Positions 1-55,812 of a stretch of DNA of 64,000 bases are shown here, piece by piece. Origin of the DNA: a virus. Its lineage: Duplodnaviria; Caudoviricetes. The notes under the pieces are model-generated. The model was not told the DNA's origin and did not search any database. It saw nothing but the letters and a program-made list of their open reading frames with translations. The translations under genes were made by a program, and so were the position numbers. Every line of letters starts with the position of its first letter. Positions within the stretch are counted from its first letter, which is position 1. Where the stretch lies: IMG/VR virus record IMGVR_UViG_3300032330_001398. The stretch is one strand, 5' to 3'.

Positions 1-1
1 T

Positions 2-24937: not shown

Positions 24938-26497
24938 TCAAATCTCATGAATTTGGTTGATTATGAAAGACGAATCATGGTCAGCAACGCTACCGCAAAA
25001 GATTAGATTATTCCCCTCGTATAGTACGTATTTGTATTTTTCTTTGACTTTTGGGAATACTATAACACTATCAAGTATACATGAGTCATCTTCTATTGTT
25101 AAAAATGACATCATTTGCCCCTTTGATTCACCCTTAGTTATTTTATAGTCAGAAACTCTTTGAACATTAGCAACTACGCACAAATCTTTACCCTTCTTAC
25201 CATTAACAATATCTTTACATGTTGTGTTAGCCGCAGAGGTATCCGATGTTTCAATCTTTGTCATTGTTACTGGACAACCCAAGAATTTAACTTCTTGATC
25301 TATTAACCAACTTGGTTCATCCTCCAAGTCATATGGAGGATTTACCAAAAGCTGTATCTCATTCTCTATAAATTGTTTTCTATCAGCTTTGCTTGTTCCA
25401 CCACCCTCTTTTTTAGTTGGAGCTAAGTCTTTCAAGCAATCGATAAATGTTTTCCATTTTTTAGATGGATACTGATTTAATATCCACGTTTTCTCAGCCT
25501 GTGTCAGATTTTTAAATATGTCATAATCATATAGCGCTTTATTCCTGCTAATTTTTTCTGAAAAATCACGATAGAATCCTATAGACGCTAACGCTTTAAA
25601 TGATGTTGAACTAACGTTAGAACTAAAGTATATCAATAGTTCAACCCATGAGAATTTGGTTATTTTCTTATTAGCAATTTTTTCAGCCTCACTAATAGCT
25701 TCTATTAACTTGTCGCCCGTTTTACCAGTTAATGATTTGATATCTTTAATTCCAAAGTATATCTTGCCATTCTTAAAATTGAACTTTGTGTCAAAGTTTG
25801 CAAGACTTGGAGTTCTTACTTGTATATCAAATAACTTCGCTTCCGAAATAAGCTCATAAACCTCTTGATGAGGGTCTTGTTTTTCATTAGCGTAATATAG
25901 GTATGATAAGAAGAATTCTGGAGTATTGTGAGCTTTATAATACGCACTCCAGTACGAACATACAGCATAAGATATGCTATGAGACTTATTAAAAGCATAT
26001 CTAGCGGACTTCTCAATCCATCCGAAAATTTGTTCTGCTTCTTCTTTTGTTACCATACCAACTCGCTGTGATCCCTCAATGAATGATTTCTTAACTTCGT
26101 TCATGAGATCAGCCTTTTTCTTTCCGATGGCCTTACGAAGAACGTCAGCCTCTTGTAGATTGAAACCGGCGACCTTCTGGGCTATACGCATAGACTGCTC
26201 TTGATAAACTAGAACTCCATACGTTGGCTTTAAGATTTCTTCTAGAGATTCATGTAGGTACGTAACCTCTTCCCTGCCGTGTTTTCTATCCACGTAATGC
26301 TGAGTCATAGACTTTCCATCAACGAAAGCTTTTAATGTTCCCGGCCTAATAATAGCAATAAGAGCAGACAGTTCTTCAATGTTGGTAGGAGCAACTTTCT
26401 TAGCCCAAGCTTTACCAAGATTACTTTCTAGCTGAAAAACACCTTTGGTCTTGCCTTCTGCAAATAATTGCCAAGTTTTTTTATCATTGTAGTCCAT
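24938..26497 (-). CDS. dnaE: DNA polymerase III alpha, C-terminal half (fingers, HhH, OB)
   Basis: GVFQLES, IRPG, TYGVLVYQEQ, LRKAIGKK, YAFNKSHS, and OB-fold MSFLTIED. Confidence 0.92.
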   Translation of the reverse strand: MDYNDKKTWQLFAEGKTKGVFQLESNLGKAWAKKVAPTNIEELSALIAIIRPGTLKAFVDGKSMTQHYVDRKHGREEVTYLHESLEEILKPTYGVLVYQEQSMRIAQKVAGFNLQEADVLRKAIGKKKADLMNEVKKSFIEGSQRVGMVTKEEAEQIFGWIEKSARYAFNKSHSISYAVCSYWSAYYKAHNTPEFFLSYLYYANEKQDPHQEVYELISEAKLFDIQVRTPSLANFDTKFNFKNGKIYFGIKDIKSLTGKTGDKLIEAISEAEKIANKKITKFSWVELLIYFSSNVSSTSFKALASIGFYRDFSEKISRNKALYDYDIFKNLTQAEKTWILNQYPSKKWKTFIDCLKDLAPTKKEGGGTSKADRKQFIENEIQLLVNPPYDLEDEPSWLIDQEVKFLGCPVTMTKIETSDTSAANTTCKDIVNGKKGKDLCVVANVQRVSDYKITKGESKGQMMSFLTIEDDSCILDSVIVFPKVKEKYKYVLYEGNNLIFCGSVADHDSSFIINQIHEI

Positions 26498-26855
26498 TTA
26501 AATAATCCAATGCTCTGTGTAATAATATTGTACTATCATTTAGATGACCTAAAGCTCTATTACATTTATGACATAGCCATCCTCTAAATTTTTTAGTGGT
26601 ATGGCAATGATCTACTACCCAAGGTCCAGAAGATTTACCACCTTCTCCATTACATTCTTGTCCAGATCTTTGACATATTGGGCAATTATATGTTAAGTCT
26701 GGTTCTTTGTGTTCTTTTCTTAAGTTTTTACGCAACTTACTCATAGCATTATTACAATTTTTACATTCAGATCTTGGATATGGTCTTCCACTATGTCTAC
26801 TGAATTTATCTAGTGGCAATGATTGTTTGCATTTACTGCATATTTTATTTAACAT
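26484..26855 (-). CDS. Endonuclease VII-family (HNH-like) putative homing endonuclease
   Basis: CSKC/CKNC Zn motifs; CPIC..VVDHCHTTKKFRGWLCHKCNRALG. Confidence 0.85.
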   Translation of the reverse strand: MLNKICSKCKQSLPLDKFSRHSGRPYPRSECKNCNNAMSKLRKNLRKEHKEPDLTYNCPICQRSGQECNGEGGKSSGPWVVDHCHTTKKFRGWLCHKCNRALGHLNDSTILLHRALDYLNGLQ

Positions 26856-27525
26856 ATAGACCACCATTCGCAAATGCTTTATCAAAAGTTATGTTCTGAT
26901 AGACTGATCGATGTGTTTTCATTAGCTTGATAAAGATGTTGGCCTCGTCCTTAACGTCTTGTAGAGCGTCGTGAGCATTTTCTTTGCTAAGACCCATTCT
27001 TTCTCGTAGAGAATCCATGCTAATTGACTTTACTGATGGATCACTTTCTGTCCAAACAAAAACATTATCCATAATATCAACCTTGTAAACTTTACTAAAT
27101 AGTTTCTGCTGCTCTCTTTCCTTATCCCAAGGACCATACTCTTTACAGAGTCTATTGATAATATGCATATCAAATCCAAGAATATTAAAACCAACAGGAA
27201 TAGGAGCAAAAAATGGATCGCCCTTCCAATTATATTGATCAACAAACTTGACAAATTTTGACCATACAGACTTAATAGACGGTGCTTCTGCTAAAGCTTC
27301 TCTAGTTTTACCAGTAATTTTTAAAGCCTCATCTTGAAGAGGATCTAAACCAAGAGATAAAGCTTCTTGATCATCAAGTATGGGTTTAATTTCACTATTA
27401 AATTGCCCTTTCATTGATAAGTTTCTACCATCAAGAGCTATTGCAGCAATCTGTGTTGGTTGGGTTTTGTGTGGATTTCTTGAACCTGTTTCAAAATCAA
27501 ATATAATATAATCTCTATTAGCCAT
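26845..27525 (-). CDS. dnaQ: DEDDh 3'-5' exonuclease (DnaQ/epsilon-like)
   Basis: DFET (ExoI), GFNILGFD (ExoII), HDALQD (ExoIII). Confidence 0.85.
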   Translation of the reverse strand: MANRDYIIFDFETGSRNPHKTQPTQIAAIALDGRNLSMKGQFNSEIKPILDDQEALSLGLDPLQDEALKITGKTREALAEAPSIKSVWSKFVKFVDQYNWKGDPFFAPIPVGFNILGFDMHIINRLCKEYGPWDKEREQQKLFSKVYKVDIMDNVFVWTESDPSVKSISMDSLRERMGLSKENAHDALQDVKDEANIFIKLMKTHRSVYQNITFDKAFANGGLYVK

Positions 27526-29146
27526 TTTTTACTCCGGTTAGGTCTTGTATCATCATAATTTTGTCTAGTAAATTAATTCCTAGAACGTCAAACTTGACAT
27601 GACCAAGAGCTTCTAGGTCTGTCATCTCCAACCCTGCAATTTTCTCAGACGAATCACGCTGTTTAACCATTGGACAAACAGTATTTAACTTTTTAGCCGA
27701 TATAACAACACCAGCGGCATGTTTACCTTGTGTTTTAAATGTTCCTTCAATTTTGATGGCTTGATCAAAATATTCTGCATAGTTTCCTTCTAATTTACCA
27801 TCATCATTTATATAGCAAAAATCTCTCAATTCATTAGCATTATTTATCAATGCCCAACGTATGATTGATCTATGTTCATCATCCATATCCGCAAGCTGAT
27901 CTGAAATTTCAGCTTCGTTAGGAATACTCTTTGTTATAGCATTCATTTCACCAAAAGAACATGCCTCATTGATACGCAATACTTCTTTAATAGCACTTCT
28001 TCCCTGTAGTCTACCAAATGTGATCATTTGACTAACGTGGTCGCTACCATATTTCTTCTTAAGATATGAAATAACTTCATCACGTTTTTTGCCGGGAACG
28101 TCCATATCAATATCTGGCAGTGAGATATGGTCTTCACTATTTCGTCCAGCATTATAAAATCTAGCAAACAATAGGTCAAATTCTATTGGATCAATCTTTG
28201 TTATTCCAATAAGATATGATATTAAACAACCGGCGGCAGAACCTCTACCGGGACCACAAAGCCAGCCCTGACTTTCACAGTAATGAATAATATCCCGAAC
28301 TATTAGAAAATAACCGAATAGATTGGCACCCTTAATTACATCAAACTCCTCTTTAAATCTATCTAGATATTTCTGTTTATCTTCTGGCTTAGAAACCTTA
28401 TCATTATCTATTAATAGACTTTTCCAACCGATGCGGCATAGTTCTTTTAAGTAGTCTTCTTCTGTTTGATCATTTGGACATGAGAACTTTGGCAAGTTGG
28501 GCTTACTAAGAATATCATAATCTTCGCACTGATTATAAATATCTTCCAGCTTATCTGTTTCTAATTCTTTTGATTCATCCTTATCAAGAACATAGAATGT
28601 GTCAGACATGAAGTAATTTAATTTATCCATATGGCTGTTCATATCTGAACCAACATTTACATTCCCGCTCTTATCCTTTCTGATAGCTTTGTTAACTCTT
28701 GGTAGAGTTGTTTTCATATCAGAGCATAGCAATATTCTATGCAATTTAGCATCTTCCCTATTGGTATAGTAGCTTATGGGAATAGACTTGCTTGGAGAAT
28801 TAGAAAGTTTTATCAAGTTATTCTTATTGAATATTTTGTTAAATATCGCTTCTGACAAATCGCCATTTTCGTCAATAGATGATACCAACTCTATTAGGTC
28901 GTGCCACCCATCTTTATTCTTAGCAAATACCTTAAACTTATCAAAAGAGCATCCTATTATTGGCTTAATGCCATTACTTTTACAAGCCTTATAAAAAGAT
29001 ATTGCGCCAGATATAGTCTTATGGTCGCAAATACCGCAAGCTATATAGCCATTAGCTTTACACTTTTCTGCCAATTCTTCTGGCTTTGAAAAGCCTTTAA
29101 GTAAACTATAATGGGTATAGTTATTCAATGGAAACCAAGATGACAT
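27518..29146 (-). CDS. dnaE: DNA polymerase III alpha, N-terminal half (shortened PHP plus palm)
   Basis: HYSLLKG, GPGRGSAAG, PDIDMD, HAAGVVI, KFDVLG; AAGGA RBS before the ATG at 29146. Confidence 0.92.
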   Translation of the reverse strand: MSSWFPLNNYTHYSLLKGFSKPEELAEKCKANGYIACGICDHKTISGAISFYKACKSNGIKPIIGCSFDKFKVFAKNKDGWHDLIELVSSIDENGDLSEAIFNKIFNKNNLIKLSNSPSKSIPISYYTNREDAKLHRILLCSDMKTTLPRVNKAIRKDKSGNVNVGSDMNSHMDKLNYFMSDTFYVLDKDESKELETDKLEDIYNQCEDYDILSKPNLPKFSCPNDQTEEDYLKELCRIGWKSLLIDNDKVSKPEDKQKYLDRFKEEFDVIKGANLFGYFLIVRDIIHYCESQGWLCGPGRGSAAGCLISYLIGITKIDPIEFDLLFARFYNAGRNSEDHISLPDIDMDVPGKKRDEVISYLKKKYGSDHVSQMITFGRLQGRSAIKEVLRINEACSFGEMNAITKSIPNEAEISDQLADMDDEHRSIIRWALINNANELRDFCYINDDGKLEGNYAEYFDQAIKIEGTFKTQGKHAAGVVISAKKLNTVCPMVKQRDSSEKIAGLEMTDLEALGHVKFDVLGINLLDKIMMIQDLTGVKNG

Positions 29147-29185
29147 ATTATTCCTTATCTTCAATGTGTATGCTTACGCTATCAA

Positions 29186-46161: not shown

Positions 46162-46791
46162 CTAGCTGTTCCACCAATGATTCAAAATTTTTGTAACTAT
46201 CCAATTAATAATGATGGGTAAAAGAACATTTATTATCAGAATAGTTAGTATAACTGATCCACAAACAATTTCTTTGTCATTTTTTGCGTTTTCTAAGATA
46301 AAATCATAGCATTGTTTTCTAAGTTTTTTCTTTTCGCTTCGTGTTGCATTTTTAATGTCTCGTTCTGAACTGACTATTGTAGCCCATTCGCCACCATATT
46401 GCAAGCATCGTTTAGCGATTTTTCTTCTACTGTCATCTTGATATTCCAAGTTGATATCATTAGCAATACCGATTAAATATGAATCATCGTTTGATCCAAA
46501 TTTTAATGTTCCAGTATAGTCAAACTTTATATCTGGAAAATGTTTGATTTTTATTACGCCACCATCTTTTCCAAGCGTCATTCCTATAATATTTAGATTG
46601 AACTTGATAAATTTTTCAATAGTAGCTATTGGTAGATTATTGTTAAAGTTGATATCAACAGAGTCATTTTTATTGATTACCGAAACATCTATTGGAGATG
46701 GACATTGAACAGACATTGTTCCCATCTTATAGCCGGATGAAGAAAAAATGCTAATCAGAATATCTTTTATTTTACTTATATCGTAATTCAT
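46162..46791 (-). CDS. Hypothetical membrane protein (C-terminal TM)
   Basis: VILTILIINVLLPIIINWIV. Confidence 0.55.
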   Translation of the reverse strand: MNYDISKIKDILISIFSSSGYKMGTMSVQCPSPIDVSVINKNDSVDINFNNNLPIATIEKFIKFNLNIIGMTLGKDGGVIKIKHFPDIKFDYTGTLKFGSNDDSYLIGIANDINLEYQDDSRRKIAKRCLQYGGEWATIVSSERDIKNATRSEKKKLRKQCYDFILENAKNDKEIVCGSVILTILIINVLLPIIINWIVTKILNHWWNS

Positions 46792-46797
46792 ATTCTA

Positions 46798-47247
46798 TCA
46801 TTTCTGTATTAAAGACCAACATAGACCCATAAAGTAATCGCTTATTTTATTTTTTTCTTCTTGAGAAAGATCATGGTTATCATCAGATACCAAATCTGAT
46901 ATTAGTTTTGTTAAACCGTCGCCAAATCCATTGTATTTTCCAACTAATTCCTCTTTAAAAAATGTTTTTCCAGCTAAAGTATAAACGTCATTTACTTGTT
47001 GTAAATTTGTATTATAGTCCTTAACTCTTGTTGCGAATTCATAATTGAAAATTGCTATTTTTGTTCTGTCTTTTGGGTCGGTGACTAAAGATGCTAATCC
47101 TTTTACAGCTTGCATTACTTCTTCGCTTGGTTTTTCAACGTCCAATATTGCTACTGGTTCTGGAATTATTGGTATGTGAATATTTTTTAGATTTGGTTCA
47201 AACAAGCTGTAAGTTATTAAAAGTAAACCGATTAACATGCGTATCAT
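46798..47247 (-). CDS. Hypothetical exported/membrane-anchored protein
   Basis: N-terminal hydrophobic segment followed by a Pro linker. Confidence 0.55.
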   Translation of the reverse strand: MIRMLIGLLLITYSLFEPNLKNIHIPIIPEPVAILDVEKPSEEVMQAVKGLASLVTDPKDRTKIAIFNYEFATRVKDYNTNLQQVNDVYTLAGKTFFKEELVGKYNGFGDGLTKLISDLVSDDNHDLSQEEKNKISDYFMGLCWSLIQK

Positions 47248-47248
47248 T

Positions 47249-47554
47249 TTATACCTCTACTTTAACTGTTGTGTCTACTACAGTTGATTGAGATTTATCA
47301 TTTAATAGTGGGAAAACTTCATCTAATTTGTCTTTTGCTGATCCTAGCTTGCTATTAACACATTCATTTCTTAATTTATACCATAGATCTATAATTTGTA
47401 TGAATTTATCATTTCCTATTGGTTGTAATGATTTATTCTTTTTCATATTTAGTAATTTGCTAATAATATAGCTTGGATTAACATAGTATGATGCTACTAA
47501 AGCTACTCCAACTAATAATGCTAATACTCTAAGTGTTGTTTCAAGGTTGAACAT
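47249..47554 (-). CDS. Hypothetical membrane protein (N-terminal TM)
   Basis: VLALLVGVALVASYY. Confidence 0.55.
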   Translation of the reverse strand: MFNLETTLRVLALLVGVALVASYYVNPSYIISKLLNMKKNKSLQPIGNDKFIQIIDLWYKLRNECVNSKLGSAKDKLDEVFPLLNDKSQSTVVDTTVKVEV

Positions 47555-47562
47555 ATAAACTC

Positions 47563-47868
47563 CTATTTCGATGATTTACTGTGATATGGGCATGATGTTT
47601 TGTGTCCATCTCCTTGGACAATAATTCCTGTGCCTTTGCAGATACATTTTGCTGGATCTGGATTTGTGCCATCGTTAATATCCGGTTGAGGATTTGGATC
47701 AACAACATAAACTTTGGACTCTGCATCTTTGAATGAAAGTTCAGCCTGTTGTTTCCAATCATCTATATAGGATGAATACATATCTGTAATCTCTGTTTTT
47801 GGTAGAGATTGAGCTATGTTAGATGAACATCCTAATAAGACTAAAATTAATAATAAGGTATACCTCAT
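47563..47868 (-). CDS. Putative lipoprotein with Cys-rich C-terminus
   Basis: Lipobox LLGC after a hydrophobic signal; CICKGTG..GDG..CPYH. Confidence 0.6.
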   Translation of the reverse strand: MRYTLLLILVLLGCSSNIAQSLPKTEITDMYSSYIDDWKQQAELSFKDAESKVYVVDPNPQPDINDGTNPDPAKCICKGTGIIVQGDGHKTSCPYHSKSSK

Positions 47869-48083
47869 GGTGTACCTCCATCGATTCCATTGTAATAATT
47901 AATATTGTCAAATCTATCTGTATATTTAGTTTCTAGCTGATTATAAGTTGCTGAACCTTGAAAATCGCTTGGTAGCGATTCATATTCTCCGGTTCTATAA
48001 CAATAAACTACGCAAGAAGCGTTTTTGATAGTTTCATTACCAGAAACCACATTTGTTACTACGTCTGTTGTTGTAATTGCCAC
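47865..48083 (-). CDS. Hypothetical protein
   Basis: 72 aa, GTG start with AAGGAG RBS. Confidence 0.55.
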   Translation of the reverse strand: MAITTTDVVTNVVSGNETIKNASCVVYCYRTGEYESLPSDFQGSATYNQLETKYTDRFDNINYYNGIDGGTP

Positions 48084-48099: not shown

Positions 48100-48993
48100 T
48101 TATGGTGTTGCTGACCACCAGATTTTTAGATTGACGAATGCTGTTGAAGAGTCTGGATTAAAATATAATGTTTGACCCGCTGTTATAGCTTTGCTTCCAG
48201 ATGTAGAACCTACACATTGATATGTTGTACTTCCACCTGCGGCTGTGAGAATTTCAAAATAATCATTTCCACAATCTGATAGTGTTAAACTATTCCAACT
48301 CCATTTAATATATCCTGTTGTATTTACTACTCTTCCAGTGTTATATGTTGCAATAGTAGATGCTACGAATGGGCTGGCTAGCGTTCCGCTTCCAGTAAAT
48401 CCAACAGCATTCCATGCGGCATTAGCTGTTCCCCAAGGATTTGGAGCGGCTGTTGTGGTCGTGGTTGACGTTGTAGTTGGTGCTGATGTGGTAGTGGTGC
48501 TTGTTGTTGTGCTGGTCGTAGTTGTACTTGTAGTAGTAGTTGTGCTAGTCGTGGTAGTCGTGGTAGTAGTTGTGGTAGTTGTACTGGTGGTGGTAGTTGT
48601 GCTGGTAGTTGTGCTGGTAGTGGTAGTTGGCGCTAGCGTGGTTGATGTTGTAGTTGTGGTGGTGGTACTAGTTGTGCTAGTTGTGGTGCTAGTTGTGGTT
48701 GTGGTTGTGGTGCTGGTTGTGGTCGGCGTTGGCGTGGTTGTTGTGCTTGTGGTGGTTGTTGTGCTTGTGGTGGTTGTAGTGCTGGTGGTAGTTGTAGTAC
48801 TAGTTGTGGTTGTGCTGCTGGTTGTGCTAGTTGTAGTGCTAGTCGTACTTGTGGTACTAGTTGTAGCTGGGCCAGAAGTGGTTGTAACACCATTGGCTGT
48901 ATACGCTACAGAATTACCAATGTATATAGATGATACTTCAGTACCACCTACATACACTTTATTTATAGAGCTAGTGCCAACTTTTAAAGTCAT
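48100..48993 (-). CDS. Mucin-like Thr-rich fibre/adhesin protein
   Basis: N-terminal LKVGTSSINKVYVGGTEVSSIYIG (fibre-associated motif), ~145 aa almost pure Thr/Ser stalk, globular C-terminal domain. Confidence 0.7.
   Translation of the reverse strand: MTLKVGTSSINKVYVGGTEVSSIYIGNSVAYTANGVTTTSGPATTSTTSTTSTTTSTTSSTTTTSTTTTTSTTTTTSTTTTTSTTTTPTPTTTSTTTTTTTSTTTSTTSTTTTTTTSTTLAPTTTTSTTTSTTTTTSTTTTTTTTTTTTSTTTTTSTTTTSTTTSTTTTSAPTTTSTTTTTAAPNPWGTANAAWNAVGFTGSGTLASPFVASTIATYNTGRVVNTTGYIKWSWNSLTLSDCGNDYFEILTAAGGSTTYQCVGSTSGSKAITAGQTLYFNPDSSTAFVNLKIWWSATP
48451..48885 (-). repeat. Low-complexity ACN codon array (poly-Thr/Ser, TTTTTS units)
   Basis: Imperfect (GTN)n trinucleotide array on the + strand with varied third positions. 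Confidence 0.9.
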
Positions 48994-48998
48994 CTATA

Positions 48999-49280
48999 TT
49001 ACTTTATTAGGTAAACTGTTTTGGGATCTTTGGTGGATAAATTATTGTAGTCAGTTTGACTCATAGTTACAATGTTATACACCCCAGAAGCATTAGTAAT
49101 CCCAACAGTATTACTTACCACAGTATTAGGTAAATTGGCCCAGCTTGTATATTCATCTCCAATTTTAATTACTTTTGTATCAGTAGCGAAAGATGGTTCA
49201 CCAGATGCTAAGATTGTATTCTTAGATATAAACTCTGATTCTGGACCCCTTCTTAGCTGTATATCGGTTTTCTTAGACAT
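48999..49280 (-). CDS. Small tail-fibre adaptor: Mtd N-terminal-like domain plus short C-terminal fibre motif
   Basis: IQLRRG..ILASGEPSFATDTKVIKIGD..W..LP; MSQTDYNNLSTKDPKTVYLI. Confidence 0.7.
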   Translation of the reverse strand: MSKKTDIQLRRGPESEFISKNTILASGEPSFATDTKVIKIGDEYTSWANLPNTVVSNTVGITNASGVYNIVTMSQTDYNNLSTKDPKTVYLIK

Positions 49281-49293
49281 ATTTCACCTTATT

Positions 49294-50739
49294 TTATGGG
49301 ATACTTGTGTTAGTAGTTCCTATTCTCCAATATGTTTTATTATTCACTGTTATTTTATTTTGTAATTCTGCTGATGGATTTTCTGGATCTGAAATTTCTA
49401 TAGGTCTAGTTAAATATTGCCAATTATTTGGATTAGAATAGTTTATAATACCATTCCATTCTGATATGTTCAATTTTTCCATAATTCTATCTATTCTACA
49501 AGCATAAGCTATTGGAATACCGTCAAGTGTCGGATCTGTTGCTAGAAATATTATTCCTATTATTTTTTCTATATCATCTATAACTGCTGTTAAAACAGAT
49601 CCAGAATCGCCAGCAACGGCTGGATGGGAATATTCTTGCGTAGTACCGATATTAAGATTACCCTCAAGAAGAATAAGATCTGAATAATATACAGTTCTTG
49701 TTAAATTAATAGTTGTGGATGGAACAAGTTTTGATCCATATGGAATTTCTTGAGTTATACCAAGACTGGCCGTTACGCCTAGCTGTTTAATAACATAACA
49801 ATCTATTTGCGCTCCGCTAGTTCTTCCGCTCATACTTGTTGAAGAATAAGCATTGAAAGACTGTAGAAGCCTATCTAATTCGTATGTTGTTGCAAATGGT
49901 AAAAAATTATCCGTTAATAATCCTAAAACTCCACTAGAAACACTACTAATTGTGTTTCCTCCGCTATTTATGTGAACTAATGCAGCATCAACATAATTTT
50001 TTGGAATTTCTGAAACAACGAATTTATATCCATCTAATTGAAAATTATTTATGAAGTTAGTTTCTGAATATCTTTTTATTTTACCAATATTGTTTTGTTC
50101 ACGGTTGTTGTATAAATCAGTTATTGATTGAGATGTTCCATCAAAAGATTCTAATAAAGATGGTTGTATTACTATATCATCTGATGTATTGAAATTATAC
50201 AATTTTAATCTATTTTCCACAGATAAATAAGTTTCACAAACAACGTGGGCTGATGTTAATCCAACTATTGAGCCATCTTCATTGTCTACAACTAAACATC
50301 CTAAAGTTCCAACACTACTATATAGATTATTTGGCGTATTTGTTTGATTATTATTAACAGCACTTATTGATATTCCTCCAATTAGAGGTCTTTTTCTAGC
50401 TCTATGAGCTAGTTGATCTTCCGTAAGACCGGTAGAGCCATAACCAGGTTGACTTGCATTCCAATCAAAACAGGCTATTTTTTTTGCTTTATTTGGAGTT
50501 TCAATAACGTCAGAAGGAAAATTTTGATCATTTATCGTTATATTTAATGGAATAATTTCTTCTGGTAACAATTCTGATAATTGTTTTTTTTCTTTGACTC
50601 CAAAAATAACACTGATTTCATCTGTAACTTGTCCATTTTTAGTCTTATTGCCAATACCAATAGAGTATACTTCTGGATGACTTTCCATATAAAGTATAGA
50701 AAAATTTTCAAAATCTTCTTTATTTTCTGGTTGAATCAT
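49294..50739 (-). CDS. Trypsin-like (S1) serine protease with N-terminal propeptide-like region
   Basis: GTLGCLV; catalytic triad LTSAHV (His), VDAAL (Asp), AGDSGS (Ser). Confidence 0.8.
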   Translation of the reverse strand: MIQPENKEDFENFSILYMESHPEVYSIGIGNKTKNGQVTDEISVIFGVKEKKQLSELLPEEIIPLNITINDQNFPSDVIETPNKAKKIACFDWNASQPGYGSTGLTEDQLAHRARKRPLIGGISISAVNNNQTNTPNNLYSSVGTLGCLVVDNEDGSIVGLTSAHVVCETYLSVENRLKLYNFNTSDDIVIQPSLLESFDGTSQSITDLYNNREQNNIGKIKRYSETNFINNFQLDGYKFVVSEIPKNYVDAALVHINSGGNTISSVSSGVLGLLTDNFLPFATTYELDRLLQSFNAYSSTSMSGRTSGAQIDCYVIKQLGVTASLGITQEIPYGSKLVPSTTINLTRTVYYSDLILLEGNLNIGTTQEYSHPAVAGDSGSVLTAVIDDIEKIIGIIFLATDPTLDGIPIAYACRIDRIMEKLNISEWNGIINYSNPNNWQYLTRPIEISDPENPSAELQNKITVNNKTYWRIGTTNTSIP

Positions 50740-50753
50740 ATATTACCTATTTA

Positions 50754-52598
50754 TTACTGTGGAAAATGTACATATAATGAATATCTATTTTGGGTGGTTA
50801 CAACATTTCCGTTAGTTATATCAACACTACAAGGTTGTGGTAGTCTGTCGCTTTGAGTAGCAAATTTATAGTATTTTTGATATCTAGGATCATAATAAGC
50901 AGCTTTATACCATTCATGTAAACTTGGAATTACTGCTTTTTCCGATAGCGCTCTTTGATAATAGCCGCTATAATCTTCATTATTAGATAAATCATATGCG
51001 CCAGTTTCTGTGCTATCGGACGTTCCTCCAAAAGATGGTTTGTTATTGTGTAACCAATTACAATATCTAGCAGCATGAATCCAATTTAAGCCAACCGCTG
51101 GTCTGCTTAAATTGTAAGAATAAACAAAGTATCTATTTCCAACCGGCCGAGTGGAGTCAAATAGTAATTGGTTTCCATAACTAGATTCTAGAGCTACTAA
51201 TGAACCAGATACTAATTTCATGCCAATCGTACAGTATTTTAGATTAAGGTGTTGAGCGCCGGTTGGATCAACAGTATTTAAATATGTAACGAATTCAGAA
51301 AATGTTAGTGGGTTTTTTTTAATCCAATATGGATAATTAACTGTTCCAATATTTTGTAAACCTAGTTCTAGTGTGGATGGTATGTCATACCTATATCTAC
51401 TTTCTCCTTGTGTTATTGTGTCGCTAGGATTTGAAATATTTCCAACCTCTGCCCATAAACTACTTTCATTTTGTGGAGGTGGTGAACACCTTACAATTCT
51501 AAGTCCAGTAGGATTATTGTCACTTTTTTGTAGAGTACTATTATAATAAGTTGATAGATTTGGAGCATTTTTTGCTGGAAATGTATAGTGTATCGCAACT
51601 CTTTGATTAAAGTAGGTGATTTGATCATTCGTTAATATGAAAGCGTTGTCGTATACTGATCCACCAAGAGCTACTCTAGTACTTCCAGCGTAATAAGACC
51701 CAGCACCGGCGAAATCATCTATATATTCATAAATATTTCCATCTTGACCATATGTTCCGTAATAACTTGGGTTAGTTGATGTGCTAACATTTACTGGAAG
51801 AATCTCTAGTTTTGATGTATTATTATAAGTTGGTCCTGTTCCGGCATCATTATAATACGTATAGCCAAGAGTTTGATTTCCATAGGCCGCGTATGTTATT
51901 GCTATTCCGGGAACTGCCGTTGTGGTAGTTGTTGTTGAAGTTGTTGGGCCAGATGTTGTAGTTGTTGTTGGGCCAGATGTGGTGGTGGTGGTGGTGGTTG
52001 TTGGACCAGATGTTGTGGTGGTGGTTGTTGGACCAGATGTTGTGGTCGTTGTTGGACCAGATGTAGTAGTTGGTCCAGATGTTGTTGTGGTCGTTGGACC
52101 AAGCGTGGTAGTGATAATACTACAGTCTAATGTTCCACACTCAACAGCATAAATACTTAAAGTTAATGGATTACTCCAATATCCAATTGCTGGAATTTTA
52201 GTTGAAGAAGCGTTAACAATTTTAATTGATATTTCGTCATTATTACTAACATATGAGTAAGCTATTACTGTTCCAGATAAAAGTTCTCTTGATGGAGAAA
52301 CCGATATAGAATATGCTTTTGATGTTAAAACGCCGGGAACATTTACTGTTAGAGTGTGACTTGAATTTACTAATATTTCTGGGAGAGTATAAACGCAAGA
52401 TCTACGTGTAAAAATATTATTGTTGTTATCTCCACCAATTGATGGTAGTTGACTCCAAGTTTTTACACCGTCACCAACTTTTAATAAATTTGCATCGATA
52501 GCAAAAGCTGGTTCTCCAGAAGCTAAAACTGGATTTGCATCATTAAACTCAGAAAGAGGTCCGCGACGAATTTTAATAGTATCATAAAAAGTAGTCAC
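50754..52598 (-). CDS. Tail fibre/receptor-binding protein: Mtd_N-like, Thr-rich stalk, FGE-sulfatase (CLec-fold) domain
   Basis: IKIRRG..PVLASGEPAFAIDANLLKVGDG..WSQLP; TTTTSGP repeats; YGTYGQDGNIYEY, AARYCNWLHN, TETGAY, IPSLHEWYKAAYY. Confidence 0.8.
   Translation of the reverse strand: MTTFYDTIKIRRGPLSEFNDANPVLASGEPAFAIDANLLKVGDGVKTWSQLPSIGGDNNNNIFTRRSCVYTLPEILVNSSHTLTVNVPGVLTSKAYSISVSPSRELLSGTVIAYSYVSNNDEISIKIVNASSTKIPAIGYWSNPLTLSIYAVECGTLDCSIITTTLGPTTTTTSGPTTTSGPTTTTTSGPTTTTTTSGPTTTTTTTTSGPTTTTTSGPTTSTTTTTTAVPGIAITYAAYGNQTLGYTYYNDAGTGPTYNNTSKLEILPVNVSTSTNPSYYGTYGQDGNIYEYIDDFAGAGSYYAGSTRVALGGSVYDNAFILTNDQITYFNQRVAIHYTFPAKNAPNLSTYYNSTLQKSDNNPTGLRIVRCSPPPQNESSLWAEVGNISNPSDTITQGESRYRYDIPSTLELGLQNIGTVNYPYWIKKNPLTFSEFVTYLNTVDPTGAQHLNLKYCTIGMKLVSGSLVALESSYGNQLLFDSTRPVGNRYFVYSYNLSRPAVGLNWIHAARYCNWLHNNKPSFGGTSDSTETGAYDLSNNEDYSGYYQRALSEKAVIPSLHEWYKAAYYDPRYQKYYKFATQSDRLPQPCSVDITNGNVVTTQNRYSLYVHFPQ
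51919..52113 (-). repeat. Tandem (T)nSGP repeats
   Basis: Six SGP units separated by Thr runs (recurring TTGGNCCAGATGT on the + strand). Confidence 0.85.
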
Positions 52599-52610
52599 AG
52601 GCTATCCCTA

Positions 52611-52814
52611 TTAATGTGTTAAGGATTGTATGAATTGATCTATCAACTCTGGAGTCCACAGTAATTGAGCAATAGCTAGTGCTTGTGGATGTTCTTCTGG
52701 TGGCAAGTCTCCATTTGGAAGATAAGTTGCTCTACCTAGTGGCGCTAATGGATCATCTAATTTAATCCTCACAACTATAACACCATTTGGGAATATATCT
52801 GTTCTTATTATCAT
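52611..52814 (-). CDS. Small tail-fibre-associated (chaperone-like) protein
   Basis: C-terminal QALAIAQLLWTPELIDQF resembles the small 'AVWT.EV' proteins found next to phage fibre genes. Confidence 0.45.
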   Translation of the reverse strand: MIIRTDIFPNGVIVVRIKLDDPLAPLGRATYLPNGDLPPEEHPQALAIAQLLWTPELIDQFIQSLTH

Positions 52815-52824
52815 TAGTTGTTCC

Positions 52825-53742
52825 TTAAAATACTTCGTTAATAGTCCAAGTTATTTTTCTTGCTGGGAATCCGTCAACGTCACTAAATACCCATGAACCA
52901 TTAGCTGCTAGCATTTCTTCTGCATCATCTTGTCTAATCCAAAAACTTCCATCTGGTTGATCGTGACGCTTATCGCCACCATTCCAAATTCCCCAACTAT
53001 TTTGAACTAAAAATAATGTTTCGTTGTATATCTCGCGTGTATCATCCATTCCTACCCAAGCCATCGCGTGACCCCAATTTCCACTTCTTTTTGCTATACC
53101 ATTTTTATCTCTGCGAGAAGAAAATCCAGAATTACTACATACAGAAATTGAATAACCGTTGGCTAAAGCATCTCTAGCTTGAGCAACAGTATTAACTAAA
53201 CTAATAGTTTTAACTTGGTGTTTTTTAGCTTCGTTAACTAAATCGTCTGGTATTCCGCGACTACCCCATTTTCCACCAATAGCGCTATATTCTGATAGAT
53301 CTATATCGCCATATTGTTGACGTAGCAATATTCCACCAGTTTGATGAACAAACCTTGCGGCAGCGGAACAACTCATACCTTCGCCAGCATAACCTCTTGA
53401 TCCATAAATAGCTTCTGTTGCACCTTTGGCAACAAATTCTTCGCGTTCGCCACCTATTATTTCGCAGCAGCGTGTAACGTCAACGCTGTTTCGCGTAGCA
53501 TGGCTGACACAATCACCTTGGACCTGTCTTTCTGACCGGCCAAAATCTGGATCGTATTTCATGATACTTTTAAAAAGTAAAGCTAACTTACCTTCGCCAG
53601 TACCAGATAAATTATATGCTGATGCGCCGAATAGAGGGTGTGGCAATTCTCCTAAGAGTTTCGCCACATCCTCTGGGTCGCACCAAGAGCCATTAAATCC
53701 ATCTTTATAAGCTTTTAATAGCTCACTTGGAGTTTTAAACAT
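52825..53742 (-). CDS. Papain-like (C1) cysteine peptidase
   Basis: QVQGDCVSHA (Gln/Cys), WGHAM (His), VQNSWG (Asn), GSFWI; no signal peptide. Confidence 0.85.
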   Translation of the reverse strand: MFKTPSELLKAYKDGFNGSWCDPEDVAKLLGELPHPLFGASAYNLSGTGEGKLALLFKSIMKYDPDFGRSERQVQGDCVSHATRNSVDVTRCCEIIGGEREEFVAKGATEAIYGSRGYAGEGMSCSAAARFVHQTGGILLRQQYGDIDLSEYSAIGGKWGSRGIPDDLVNEAKKHQVKTISLVNTVAQARDALANGYSISVCSNSGFSSRRDKNGIAKRSGNWGHAMAWVGMDDTREIYNETLFLVQNSWGIWNGGDKRHDQPDGSFWIRQDDAEEMLAANGSWVFSDVDGFPARKITWTINEVF

Positions 53743-53752
53743 TATATGTTCC

Positions 53753-53962
53753 TTACTTTGTGTTATCTTTAACCCATTTTACTGCTGAGTCGATTAGAAT
53801 TGTTACTACTGGAACAACTAATGCGGTGCCAGCACCAAGATCGATGTTGGATAAATTCTGACCGACATAAGTTAAAACAGCAGCTAAACCTACTAATACA
53901 GCATTTTTGGCTAACGATAAAGCATCGTTCTTGTTAAATTCGAAAGCTTTTGAGTCTAACAT
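53753..53962 (-). CDS. Putative holin (2 TM)
   Basis: 69 aa with two hydrophobic helices and a basic C-terminus, directly upstream of the peptidase. Confidence 0.55.
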   Translation of the reverse strand: MLDSKAFEFNKNDALSLAKNAVLVGLAAVLTYVGQNLSNIDLGAGTALVVPVVTILIDSAVKWVKDNTK

Positions 53963-53964
53963 TA

Positions 53965-54558
53965 TTATACCTCTTTGAGTTCTGAGACACTGACTAAAAA
54001 ACCACCATGTTCATGATCGTTTATTTTATATGGATATCCGGTCATCTGAACAAGTTTTCCATCACAGTTTTTGCTAACCCTCATGAATTTTCTATTCATT
54101 TCTAAACAAGATTTGAATTCTGCTAAAAATTCTTCTCTTTCATCTTCGTCTATATATGAAACCCAATCAAAACCTTCTGCGTGTTGTAGCTTATTAGCTG
54201 TTAACCTACAAAAGTTTTCATTGGACCAAGTTATTCTTCCTTTACTATCGGTTTCAAACAAAGAAACTAAACTATAATGTAAAGCTGCTTTTGTTCGTTG
54301 TTCGATAATTTTTTGACGCATCTCCATCCTGTGACAAGTAGTTCTTAAATCAACCACAGCATCTTTTAAACTATTTCCACCATTTGTGGTTAGTTCCTTC
54401 TTAATATCATTTATAGCTTTACTTACTAACTCTTGACCATTCATTAATTTGATAACTGGAACAACAACCTTAACCCAAATTAAGCTAAAGAAAGTTCCAA
54501 CACCACCAAGTAAACTTAAGATAAGAGTTACATACTCTGGATTTTTAAAATCTATCAT
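53965..54558 (-). CDS. Membrane-anchored PAS-domain protein
   Basis: N-terminal TM; ELTTNGGNSLKDAV coiled coil; PAS pattern FETDSKGRITWSNENFCRLT..GFDWVSYIDEDERE. Confidence 0.8.
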   Translation of the reverse strand: MIDFKNPEYVTLILSLLGGVGTFFSLIWVKVVVPVIKLMNGQELVSKAINDIKKELTTNGGNSLKDAVVDLRTTCHRMEMRQKIIEQRTKAALHYSLVSLFETDSKGRITWSNENFCRLTANKLQHAEGFDWVSYIDEDEREEFLAEFKSCLEMNRKFMRVSKNCDGKLVQMTGYPYKINDHEHGGFLVSVSELKEV

Positions 54559-54584
54559 GATTTCCCCAAAGTGATGCGATTAAT

Positions 54585-54614
54585 GGTGCCCTATAACATG
54601 AGCTATAAGGCACC
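54585..54614 (-). terminator. Stem-loop downstream of the 54631-55257 gene (terminator or processing site)
   Basis: GGTGCCTTATA-gctcatgt-TATAGGGCACC on the - strand; weak U tract. Confidence 0.5.
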
Positions 54615-54630
54615 TTTAATCTATATTAAA

Positions 54631-55257
54631 TCAAGATTCACGTACATTCTTAGCCTTATAGGAAACTGTGGTGGGACCAGCTAAGTAACCAAAGAAGTAG
54701 GTTAGATTGCCGGGAACCGAACGGCTAACAGTAGCAGCAGCGTCCGTTGCCGATGATGATCCATCGTCAGCTTGAACGTAGTTAACAACTGTTCCAGCAC
54801 CAGTACCCTTTGTGCGACCGGGAACAATCTTCCCGCCATTTGGTACTGCTAGAATATTAAATGAAGTGTCAGAGTATGAACCTAATTGGCGAGTTGTAAC
54901 AAGCTTATTAATAGTCTTGTTTGTGGCACCGCCGGGGATAGTTAGTACTGTTGATGAATCATTGTTAACCTTAGAAGCATTATCACCAGCATATCTCATG
55001 ATATAGTTGGTGCCTTTTGCTGGATTATAAGCGATACCGCCAGTACCAGCAGATTTTGCCAAGGCAATGCCCCAAGGGTCACTTGTGCCATTACCAGTAG
55101 CTGTATTTACATAAACTTTTGAGCCATAGCCATTATTGACTGAGGCATTGATAGTATTTAGTTCTAGATTTTTGGTTGTGTCACTGACATTACCAGCGTG
55201 AACAATTGTACCGCCATTATTATTTTTGACACCAGCCTTGGCTGTTGTATATGACAT
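54631..55257 (-). CDS. Gly/Thr-rich putative virion protein
   Basis: Strong AGGAG RBS, upstream late-type motif, small-residue-rich sequence. Confidence 0.55.
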   Translation of the reverse strand: MSYTTAKAGVKNNNGGTIVHAGNVSDTTKNLELNTINASVNNGYGSKVYVNTATGNGTSDPWGIALAKSAGTGGIAYNPAKGTNYIMRYAGDNASKVNNDSSTVLTIPGGATNKTINKLVTTRQLGSYSDTSFNILAVPNGGKIVPGRTKGTGAGTVVNYVQADDGSSSATDAAATVSRSVPGNLTYFFGYLAGPTTVSYKAKNVRES

Positions 55258-55341: not shown

Positions 55342-55812
55342 TTATGCGAATTTTTTACGAATATTCTGTATCATTTTATGTACTTTGCGTCTGGTACTTT
55401 CTCTATTTGTTCCATACTTTTGTGCCATTTCAGCGATTGTCATATTACTAGCTTTATCAATAAATATTTGCTTTTCTTCCTCGTTTAACTCGTCAAATAT
55501 GTCTATAATTAGAAATGGATCTTTATTATTAGATATATTGTCGTGTAATTTACCGCCGAAACGTTGAGATTTATTCTTAAATTTTATTTCCTTCATACAT
55601 TCGATAAAAACCCCGTTATAAAGATACGTTGTGAATTTGGCTGCTTTATTTGGATCATGATTCAAAAAAGCTTTCCAAAGAGCGTTGATTTGGCATGTGT
55701 AGATAGTATCTTTATCTAACTGTCCTTTAAATCTTTTTGAAGCCCTATTCATTATTTTAACTATATTACTATCATTTAATGCTGTTTCAATTTTATCATC
55801 AATACAATCCAT
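55342..55812 (-). CDS. Sigma70-family RNA polymerase sigma factor (regions 2 and 4)
   Basis: ALWKAFLNHDPNKAAKFTTYLY (region 2); LNEEEKQI..MTIAEMAQKYGTNRESTRR (region 4 HTH). Confidence 0.8.
   Translation of the reverse strand: MDCIDDKIETALNDSNIVKIMNRASKRFKGQLDKDTIYTCQINALWKAFLNHDPNKAAKFTTYLYNGVFIECMKEIKFKNKSQRFGGKLHDNISNNKDPFLIIDIFDELNEEEKQIFIDKASNMTIAEMAQKYGTNRESTRRKVHKMIQNIRKKFA

Follow-up and report, generated by a model that had tools for sequence, protein, structure and literature searches.

Phage lysis enzymes and papain-type peptidases

To our knowledge, the well-studied tailed phages all act on the wall with a glycosidase, a transglycosylase, an amidase or a peptidase of the CHAP, NlpC or M15/M23 type. 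The lambda S/R/Rz/Rz1 and T4 t/e cassettes, from phages of Gram-negative hosts, are the natural comparison for the locus considered here, which like them has a signal-less enzyme adjoining a small protein with two transmembrane (TM) segments, a lipoprotein and N-anchored proteins, is tightly packed, and has an exchangeable small membrane protein. It differs from them in that its enzyme, a C1A (papain-family) cysteine peptidase here called C1, is in no known endolysin family, that the lipid anchor of the lipoprotein is not conserved, and that other phages have two partner domains, termed Cys-knuckle and nTM149, joined to the enzyme.

The known papain-fold lysins, CHAP, NlpC/P60, Amidase_5 and PeiW/PeiP, are also clan-CA Cys-His enzymes, and phages cut wall peptides with them (PMC10318531). 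C1, in contrast, has the motifs and fold of C1A, and the CHAP and NlpC/P60 profiles did not match it. Its best structural match is xylellain of Xylella fastidiosa (3OIS), a ‘short bacterial’ C1A peptidase, and genes of that type have been acquired by Myoviridae and Siphoviridae (PMC10380794). The Q-C-H-N set and the NSWG motif are common to xylellain and C1, and in both a short N-terminal extension replaces the full propeptide; however, the two are only 18% identical, C1 falls under the Pfam C1 threshold, and it is phage-encoded and tied to fixed exported partners and holin-like genes. We know of no published function for the phage forms of the xylellain type, nor of any C1A peptidase that cuts peptidoglycan. 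What, then, might one be doing where an endolysin is expected?

The trio and its peptidase

The window, the whole stretch of 64,000 nucleotides that was analysed, is from an uncultured aquatic phage with a genome of about 160 kb. BLAST against the cultured-phage collection gave nothing, whether with C1 or with the surrounding 15 kb, and the phage DNA polymerase had no relative there of >35% identity. Three open reading frames that the initial annotation had singled out as a lysis cassette hold up, all on the minus strand. They encode a TM+PAS protein of 197 aa (53965-54558; N-terminal membrane helix, ELTTNGGNSLKD motif, C-terminal PAS), tm69, a 69-aa holin candidate with two TM segments and a basic C-terminus (53753-53962), and C1, a xylellain-type peptidase of 305 aa that lacks an export signal (52825-53742). 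Gaps of 2 nt (PAS/tm69) and 10 nt (tm69/C1) separate them. As a cassette the three are real genes but incomplete: conserved core partners lie 5 kb downstream, and the three genes form only the upstream part of a larger gene block. On its other side a strong RNA hairpin (54575-54625, minus strand; 13-bp stem, -27.1 kcal/mol) lies between the PAS gene and that for p208, a Gly/Asn/Thr-rich 208-aa protein (54631-55257, minus), with a sigma-like factor gene beyond (55342-55812, minus); the latter two are context genes. The C1 gene has its place between glycosyltransferase genes and genes for membrane proteins. A promoter/terminator scan gave a site count not above that of shuffled sequence. The genome also has rIIA/rIIB-like genes.

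The claim of a signal-less C1 protease with an intact catalytic set has fared well. Pfam PF00112 gives 17.4 bits, below its cut-off of 20.7 (E 0.005), and phmmer against the PDB found no meaningful match; a profile of 60 homologues reached papain-family chains there at E 3.5e-4. Judged by sequence, C1 is a divergent member of the papain family. All 60 keep C78, H225 and W250, and at least 90% keep Q73, N248 and S249; the motifs QxxxGxC, GHA and NSWG align to caricain, giving the catalytic Gln-Cys-His-Asn as Q73/C78/H225/N248. An AF2 model built from the alignment (pLDDT 92.8, as against 34.7 for a single-sequence model) has the papain fold. The structure search that the initial annotation had proposed, run on this model, led to xylellain-type C1A peptidases: papain-family chains were the only matches, the best being 3ois (Foldseek E 4.7e-10; Z 21.7, rmsd 2.9 A over 232 residues). 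The N-terminus has no hydrophobic segment, and structural comparison matches its first 50 residues to the propeptide end of zymogens. The family is large, with 1503 clusters at 50% identity, and inteins sit at C78, H225 and N248 in >100 homologue clusters; since these are three catalytic positions, the active site of C1 matters. Nearly all of the longer homologues searched bear inteins and none is a peptidoglycan-binding fusion, and Pfam on extended and fused forms gave inteins only, or nothing. In BFVD, phage proteins with the C1 fold are named as peptidoglycan-binding or muramidase fusions.

Could C1 be a processing protease, cytoplasmic or virion-associated, acting for instance on a giant tape-measure protein or on the adjoining tail fibres? 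The likeness of its N-terminus to a zymogen propeptide end would suit such a role, as would the 3760-aa tail protein that the genome encodes and the fibre genes that directly follow C1 in the window. Those fibre genes, however, are part of a window-specific insertion, a variable island of 4.7 kb (48100-52814, minus strand) that interrupts the module in this phage and is missing at the equivalent position in the complete relative G003, whose record is IMGVR_UViG_3300046804_003503, and in most relatives. Its five minus-strand ORFs are one of 67 aa, an Mtd_N/FGE-sulfatase-type fibre (50754-52598), a 481-aa protease-like protein (49294-50739), an Mtd_N/tail-tip protein (48999-49280) and a poly-Thr protein (48100-48993). 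What is conserved beside C1 is instead a set of exported and membrane proteins, fusions described below place C1 in the periplasm, and in the complete relative a ClpP-type protease takes care of head maturation, so that a processing function seems very improbable. The more specific candidate of a prohead protease, which the initial annotation had itself named as an outcome that would tell against lysis, is rejected: in G003 that ClpP-type protease (PF00574, E 1.2e-23) comes from the same set of ORFs as matches to capsid and cement-protein families, and C1 is outside the head module.

A larger module with exported partners

Related loci were searched with a 9-sequence C1 alignment. In about 90 related loci C1 precedes a Cys-knuckle protein, either a lipoprotein or otherwise exported, and after it come h58 (a 58-aa two-TM protein) or tm69, nTM101 and nTM149, in that order. 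This core order is kept down to 46% C1 identity (in locus L012), and also in a Flavobacteriales-binned contig. In the window the partners are at 46798-47868, where the fibre-gene island separates them from C1. All of the genes beyond the island are on the minus strand. A small conserved ORF, p72 (47865-48083), is directly after C1 in relatives free of the island. The exported Cys-knuckle partner (47563-47868) follows, then nTM101 (47249-47554; 101 aa, N-terminal anchor, conserved KLDEVFPLL motif), nTM149 (46798-47247; 149 aa, N-terminal anchor) and cTM209 (46162-46791; 209 aa, C-terminal membrane helix), the last being the block's final gene before RNR in genomes of the gene order termed A. 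Pfam and PHROGs gave nothing useful for the lipoprotein, nTM101, nTM149, cTM209 or p72.

The small membrane protein of the block has the two hydrophobic segments claimed for it (residues 14-31 and 39-64 of tm69). Pfam and PHROGs returned no holin match for tm69, the nearest Atlas clusters are named ‘Holin family protein’ (0.95), and h58 has weak but repeated matches to holin PHROGs (phrog_297 at E 0.006-0.03 and phrog_9987 at E 0.015-0.08, three members each). At locus L062 a homologue of tm69 occupies the h58 slot, and L035 carries both. We treat tm69 as a holin candidate.

The Cys-knuckle protein has a Pro-rich linker and a CxCxGxG...GDGHxTxCPxH motif and, when standing alone, a signal peptide or a lipobox. 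Set against a two-component spanin, which pairs an outer-membrane lipoprotein with an N-anchored periplasmic protein, the window form is a lipoprotein with the lipobox LLGC and a Pro-rich segment, and other phages have its domain joined to C1. The lipobox Cys is missing in many orthologues; because the lipobox is not conserved across the family, an o-spanin role is doubtful, and the fusions of both Cys-knuckle and nTM149 domains to C1, together with the unconserved lipid anchor, suggest partners of the enzyme more than a membrane-fusing spanin.

The fusions run from an N-terminal signal-anchor through an nTM149-like domain and C1 to the Cys-knuckle motif, which a CxxC (thioredoxin-like) tail follows in some of them. 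The Cys-knuckle motif is joined C-terminally to C1 in P0162, P0164, P0203 and P0208, and nTM149 is homologous to the N-terminal domain of fused C1 proteins (hhalign prob 98.2%, E 4e-14). As the standalone Cys-knuckle partner has a signal peptide or lipobox, fused C1 is placed in the periplasm, and so works outside the cytoplasmic membrane; unfused C1 may act in the periplasm too. Some phages have CxxC or WCGPC modules joined to the partner or to C1 itself, and an exported thioredoxin is among the proteins of G003.

Does working at the envelope mean lysis? C1 and its partners might instead modify or cut proteins of the host surface or periplasm and so serve, for example, superinfection exclusion, the removal of receptors or the takeover of the host. 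The fused forms are exported behind stable signal-anchors once they are made, and at L013 and L014 the C1 gene is among replication-type genes. C1A enzymes normally cut proteins, as does Cwp84, one of the structural matches, on S-layer precursors, and a lipoprotein plus membrane proteins is typical of exclusion systems also. Against this, unfused C1 has no export signal while its partners are exported, and for them to meet the membrane has to be permeabilised, which is the logic of holin and endolysin; holin-like proteins are embedded in the block, and searches of complete genomes detect no further lysis enzyme. On balance an envelope role apart from lysis appears unlikely. If the module is for lysis, the fused forms, being exported constitutively behind a stable anchor, would need extra control against lysing the cell early.

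The PAS protein and a possible part in lysis timing

The first gene of the trio was described as encoding a TM helix and a complete PAS domain that has no output domain. The helix is there, as a single hydrophobic stretch at residues 8-29, and there is no output domain; the PAS matches are just under the Pfam cut-offs (PF00989, E 2.3e-4, 21.6 bits against 22.6; PF13426, E 4.6e-4, 20.9 bits against 27). They are backed by a profile match to the MmoS PAS sensor 3ewk (E 0.006), by homologues some of which have precomputed PAS matches and JGI PAS names, and by viral Atlas clusters that carry PAS families, PAS_3 up to 100%. At the thresholds used there was no further Pfam match and no PHROG match, and so none to bear out the initial annotation's background statement that TM proteins with an NGGxSLxD-type motif occur beside holins. 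Between helix and PAS, residues 55-68 are ELTTNGGNSLKDAV; across 23 homologues T58-N59-G60-G61-N62-S63 and K65-D66 are all either invariant or conserved in 90% or more, and C151, H94, W111 and W132 are invariant. At L012 the PAS and TM parts are in swapped order, which argues for a cytoplasmic PAS domain, and the domain is probably cytoplasmic.

T4 times lysis through a partner of its holin T, the antiholin RI. Might the PAS protein likewise, as the initial annotation proposed, act on tm69 as an antiholin or timer, binding it and making lysis depend on redox, energy or ligand state? The tight packing would fit, as would the PAS–tm69–C1 order kept in about 45 order-A loci, the four invariant residues just mentioned, and the tethering itself: a tethered PAS that has no output domain must act through protein-protein contact, and L012, in keeping both parts although swapped, indicates that membrane tethering is itself selected. 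But the order-A loci are one sublineage, and shared ancestry can explain the linkage. At L009, L030, L035 and L062 tm69 adjoins C1 with no PAS gene, and in order-B genomes a non-homologous TM+coiled-coil protein replaces the PAS protein after the p208 homologue. The PAS protein of L012 precedes a soluble 68-aa protein rather than tm69. In every gene order the sigma-like and p208 genes travel with the PAS protein or with its TM+coiled-coil replacement, and the PAS protein goes with them rather than with C1. Further, there is no likeness to the antiholins in Pfam and PHROGs, nor to RI, RIII or T, and RI is periplasmic, while the sensor domain here probably faces the cytoplasm. The synteny claim has accordingly divided: C1 is linked to holin-like proteins in several gene orders, whereas PAS–tm69 adjacency is confined to the one sublineage. 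The PAS protein is lineage-specific and not a constant partner of the module, and an antiholin role for it is improbable. Two further relationships were also rejected. One had PAS added to a conserved TM-coiled-coil core, but hhalign gave no homology between the PAS-TM family and the TM+coiled-coil protein of order B (prob 0.1%); the other took the 68-aa neighbour at L012, a soluble protein, for a tm69 homologue.

Is there another wall hydrolase?

The statement that the window holds no recognisable glycosidase, amidase or CHAP enzyme stands, and extends to a complete related genome. In six frames, 15 peptidoglycan-hydrolase Pfam families, to none of which C1 belongs, found no match in G003 (100% complete), G004 or G005 (94%), and a Pfam scan of the 143 ORFs of G003 found no canonical endolysin. 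In a second C1 lineage, four common hydrolase families were absent from four genomes that are 97-100% complete, and no canonical endolysin was detected. These are searches with sequence profiles, and a divergent or new hydrolase could hide among the approximately 150 unannotated ORFs.

What envelope has to be breached? A scan of genome contigs yielded just five MAG contigs, which are weak host clues: Flavobacteriales, Pirellulales, a ‘Promethearchaeota’ MAG and one other bacterium, the ‘Promethearchaeota’ contigs being probably binned phage. The sigma-70-type factors and the lipobox lipoproteins spoke against an archaeal host with a protein S-layer, and that idea was dropped.

A proposed breach of the envelope by a papain-type peptidase

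The proposal that C1 fills the endolysin slot draws on its endolysin-like position, on linkage to holin-like and exported partners, and on the lack of a canonical endolysin, and the lysis reading as a whole is thereby partly supported. We think it somewhat probable that the trio begins a larger module for breaching the envelope in lysis, with the C1A peptidase as its catalytic part, and the gene block is probably how the phage bursts its host. Within that reading, C1 as the sole wall-cutting enzyme is possible though doubtful; a role for C1 as an accessory factor in lysis, with an unrecognised wall hydrolase also at work, is slightly less likely again.

In such lysis the peptidase would be made in the cytoplasm with no signal, and late in infection tm69, as a holin analogue, would permeabilise the inner membrane. 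C1 would then enter the periplasm, meet the Cys-knuckle lipoprotein, nTM149 and nTM101, and cut a load-bearing component of the envelope, whether the stem peptides of peptidoglycan or protein tethers. The periplasm is oxidising, and there the Cys-knuckle and CxxC (thioredoxin-like) modules of the partners may activate the catalytic thiol or preserve its activity. P1 Lyz-type SAR endolysins are under thiol-disulfide control; with a catalytic Cys in the periplasm and thiol-active partners they are a possible parallel only, as there is no homology and redox control of C1 is itself a suggestion. The PAS-TM protein, a membrane-tethered cytoplasmic sensor, would be a lineage-specific accessory outside the conserved core and may tune timing. 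The full picture, in which lysis across abundant aquatic phages is physiologically sensed, redox-armed and protease-based with no classical endolysin, PAS gating the holin and the partners both docking C1 and switching on its thiol, is distinctly improbable.

If the lysis reading is true, a C1A papain-type enzyme, or else an undescribed envelope-cutting step, would be a new enzyme class in phage lysis, and the apparent lack of an endolysin in many uncultured aquatic phages would be explained. The exported partners that recur with C1 make a defined multi-protein system for study, for which the natural fusions are a direct and cheap experimental handle. The presence of a stand-alone phage PAS sensor beside the module raises the idea that lysis timing may read the physiology of the host.

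A conserved unit larger than three genes

Three minus-strand open reading frames of 197, 69 and 305 aa, with gaps of 2 and 10 nt, make up what the initial annotation took to be a sensor-regulated lysis cassette, and its description of the genes themselves is confirmed. The first (PAS-TM, 53965-54558) has a TM helix and a PAS domain with no output domain, the second (tm69, 53753-53962) is a two-TM protein, and the third (C1, 52825-53742) is a signal-less C1 peptidase with an intact Q-C-H-N set. The reading as a lysis cassette is partly supported: a holin-like slot, exported partners and the absence of a known endolysin at sequence-profile level speak for it, but it needs redrawing around a larger conserved unit, in whose core PAS-TM is not found.

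Comparison of about 90 related loci gave two main gene orders. In order A, that of the window, its relative G003 and about 45 loci, a glycosyltransferase gene is followed by those for a sigma-like protein, a Gly/Asn/Thr-rich 208-aa protein (p208, 54631-55257), PAS-TM, tm69, C1, p72 (47865-48083), a Cys-knuckle lipoprotein (47563-47868), the N-anchored nTM101 (47249-47554) and nTM149 (46798-47247), cTM209 with its C-terminal TM helix (46162-46791) and RNR, all of these coordinates being on the minus strand. In order B (about 40 loci, C1 64-70% identical) the glycosyltransferase is followed by C1, the lipoprotein or an exported protein, a 58-aa two-TM protein, nTM101, nTM149 and, further on, sigma-like, p208-like and TM+coiled-coil proteins. 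The order-A genes are contiguous in G003; in the window a 4.7-kb fibre-type island (48100-52814) is inserted between C1 and p72, and the downstream partners are therefore displaced to 46162-48083. The island encodes an Mtd_N/FGE-type fibre, a protease-like protein, a tail-tip protein and a poly-Thr protein. The protease-like protein (481 aa; 49294-50739, minus strand) has a GDSG-type motif and hits a PHROG family annotated as ‘protease’ (E 9e-12); a trypsin-family ORF is encoded elsewhere in G003. Fibre-type proteins with long Thr/Ser/Pro tracts are specified by 48100-48993 and 50754-52598 (minus strand), and one island fibre joins an Mtd_N head-attachment domain to an FGE-sulfatase/C-type-lectin-like domain, a layout known from tropism-switching fibres.

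How far does the core reach? The run of C1, Cys-knuckle exported protein and N-anchored proteins is kept in a 168.7-kb phage (L012, C1 46% identical) and in a contig assigned by binning to a Flavobacteriales MAG. L013, a GC-rich phage of 81 kb, has N-anchored membrane proteins on either side of C1, one of them nTM149-like by eye, and no lipoprotein or nTM101 homologue was detected there. The conserved unit is made up of C1, its exported Cys-knuckle partner, nTM101 and nTM149, together with a small holin-like protein with two TM segments.

The peptidase

C1 has no hydrophobic N-terminus and its Pfam C1 match is below threshold. However, its AF2 model (pLDDT 92.8, 60-sequence alignment) has only papain-family enzymes as top PDB matches, xylellain being best (Foldseek E 4.7e-10; Z 21.7, rmsd 2.9 Å over 232 residues); C78, H225 and W250 are invariant, and variation at Q73, N248 and S249 is slight. 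The alignment to mature papain begins at about residue 50 and the first 50 residues overlay zymogen propeptide ends, so some self-inhibition by this segment is possible, as has been reported for xylellain. The family is large (1548 clusters at 90% identity, 1503 representatives at 50%), a function is given by none of the homologue source names examined, and C1 is the best-conserved gene of its neighbourhood, at 63-94% identity against lows of 28-50% for its neighbours. More than 100 homologue clusters carry LAGLIDADG inteins, whose mapped breakpoints fall at three insertion sites, C78, H225 and N248-W250, the three catalytic positions. As inteins settle where sequence cannot change, the active site is functionally required. 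Among intein-bearing homologues (e.g., P0125, P0444, P0478 and P0440) some have two inteins and exceed 1000 aa. Homologues 62-64% identical to that of the window also occur on two 16-kb contigs (L145, L146) in a ‘Promethearchaeota archaeon’ (Asgard) MAG, most likely mis-binned phage contigs.

Genome setting and the search for an endolysin

The window covers positions 11801-75800 of an IMG/VR record of 86.75 kb that is rated 55% complete, with a GC content of about 32%. In a cultured-phage collection neither C1 nor the 15 kb of surrounding DNA has a match, and the family-A DNA polymerase has no relative above 35% identity. That polymerase is split (24938-29164, minus strand) into 548- and 519-aa ORFs, consecutive parts of phrog_405, with two small ORFs of 226 and 133 aa between them. 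A frame of 3760 aa (genome 3150-14432, window 1-2632), starting 8.6 kb before the window, encodes a giant tail or tape-measure-type protein; ORFs of 591, 129, 1561 and 1234 aa lie downstream, and the corresponding region of G003 contains ORFs of 2134, 1530 and 2176 aa. Glycosyltransferases are many. Relatives of this phage, which is not T4-like, have T4 rIIB-family genes some 9 kb upstream of the module (L002/L003 1-922; L004 1-1711), each preceded by an ORF of about 700 aa. G003 (IMGVR_UViG_3300046804_003503; 161,058 bp, direct terminal repeats, rated 100% complete) is collinear with the window's record at about 70-75% nucleotide identity and served as complete-genome proxy.

That no glycosidase, amidase or CHAP endolysin is recognisable in the window was upheld by sequence profiles, and the absence extends to G003. 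A six-frame search with 15 wall-hydrolase Pfam families (Phage_lysozyme, Amidase_2, SLT, Peptidase_M15_4, M23, CHAP, NlpC/P60, Amidase_3, GH19, Hydrolase_2, Peptidase_M15_3, GH25, GH108, VanY and Glucosaminidase) detected none in G000, G001, G003 (100% complete), G004 or G005 (94%), the GH19 and GH108 negatives carrying no weight since control genomes were silent too. A separate Pfam scan of 143 G003 ORFs (80-520 aa), with all family matches listed, had no wall hydrolase, and a second, unrelated C1 lineage (four genomes, 61-82 kb, 97-100% complete) is without the four commonest endolysin families. These profile-level negatives leave room for a novel or very divergent hydrolase. The same G003 ORF scan revealed a ClpP-type protease, which rules out C1 as prohead protease; a virion maturation role had been named initially as one of the findings that would count against a lytic one, and C1 as a virion or cytoplasmic processing protease is now very improbable.

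Exported partners and fusions

At least 12 representatives, P0162 (642 aa, locus L014) and ≥11 others, are fused C1 proteins, in which a basic stretch and hydrophobic anchor precede an nTM149-like domain of about 140 aa, a linker and C1. In P0162, P0164, P0203 and P0208 the lipoprotein's CxxCxGxG...DGH...C motif is C-terminal to C1, and some fusions end in a CxxC-containing (thioredoxin-like) tail. Since the standalone Cys-knuckle protein always has a signal peptide, anchor or lipobox, its domain is periplasmic, and C1 in the fused form must then be periplasmic too. In the window C1 is without an export signal and its partners are exported, so that the two would meet only once the membrane is breached, which is holin-endolysin logic. 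That the module has instead a non-lytic envelope function is unlikely. Thioredoxin-like tails on the Cys-knuckle partner (WCGPC in L009, CDLC in L012), glutaredoxin- or thioredoxin-like genes adjoining distant C1 homologues, and an exported thioredoxin in G003 (134557-134913, minus strand; L101:14557-14913; signal peptide, WCKYC, Pfam Thioredoxin E 8e-13), of which no copy was found in the window's 55%-complete record, make a thiol-redox helper for a periplasmic cysteine enzyme an attractive, if unproven, idea.

The holin slot and the PAS protein

tm69 contains two hydrophobic segments, its C-terminus is basic, and neither Pfam nor PHROGs yielded a match for it; the Atlas clusters closest to it bear the name ‘Holin family protein’ (0.95), a lead, not proof, that makes it a holin candidate. 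The order-B two-TM protein (58-62 aa) weakly matches holin PHROGs (phrog_297, E 0.006-0.03; phrog_9987, E 0.015-0.08), recurrently across different family members. In L062 a tm69 homologue occupies the order-B slot (C1, lipoprotein, tm69, nTM101, nTM149), L035 has both types, and in L030 and L035, where a PAS gene is missing, tm69 is directly upstream of C1. Holins typically undergo non-orthologous replacement of this kind.

The single hydrophobic helix of PAS-TM spans residues 8-29, and in its ELTTNGGNSLKD motif T58-S63, K65 and D66 are each invariant or ≥90% conserved (23 homologues). Its C-terminal region is just below Pfam PAS cut-offs; a profile match to the MmoS PAS sensor (E 0.006), JGI names of homologues and language-model neighbours, viral clusters with PAS families in some at 98-100%, support the assignment. 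An RNA hairpin (54575-54625, minus strand; 13-bp stem, -27.1 kcal/mol, no U-tract), 3′ of p208 and 5′ of the PAS gene, may act to stabilise or attenuate a late transcript that is highly expressed. In the distant relative L012 (13044-13721) the PAS protein is inverted, with N-terminal PAS, coiled coil and C-terminal TM helix; the N-terminal domain of a tail-anchored protein stays in the cytoplasm, and the charges around the helix of PAS-TM, -1 on its N-terminal and +1 on its C-terminal side, agree with a cytoplasmic PAS domain. PAS-TM would thus be a membrane-tethered cytoplasmic sensor without output domain.

Is it part of the unit? In every order-A locus the PAS gene comes after those for the sigma-like protein and p208. 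The linkage of PAS, holin-like protein and C1 seen initially stands within one sublineage, but tm69 adjoins C1 without PAS in four arrangements, and at the same position order B has a TM+coiled-coil protein that lacks a PAS domain and shows no detectable homology to PAS-TM. PAS-TM is a lineage-specific neighbour outside the unit. Adjacency within that one sublineage is what makes a role in lysis timing plausible; that PAS actually gates lysis, an add-on compatible with any of the readings, is given little credence.

Lysis by a papain-like enzyme?

Xylellain-type C1A genes have been acquired by Myoviridae and Siphoviridae, the paper giving no function (PMC10380794), and in a survey of papain-like enzymes the wall-cutting members are CHAP, NlpC/P60, Amidase_5 and PeiW/PeiP, with C1 absent (PMC10318531). 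A literature search found no paper on a papain-family lysis enzyme or PAS-domain antiholin. BFVD holds many C1-fold proteins of uncultured phage, one named peptidoglycan-binding and one a muramidase fragment, a hint of wall-directed use of the fold. On balance we lean, modestly, to the module being an envelope-breaching lysis module; if so, C1 might be its sole wall-cutter, marginally the likelier version, or an accessory factor, which is almost as likely.
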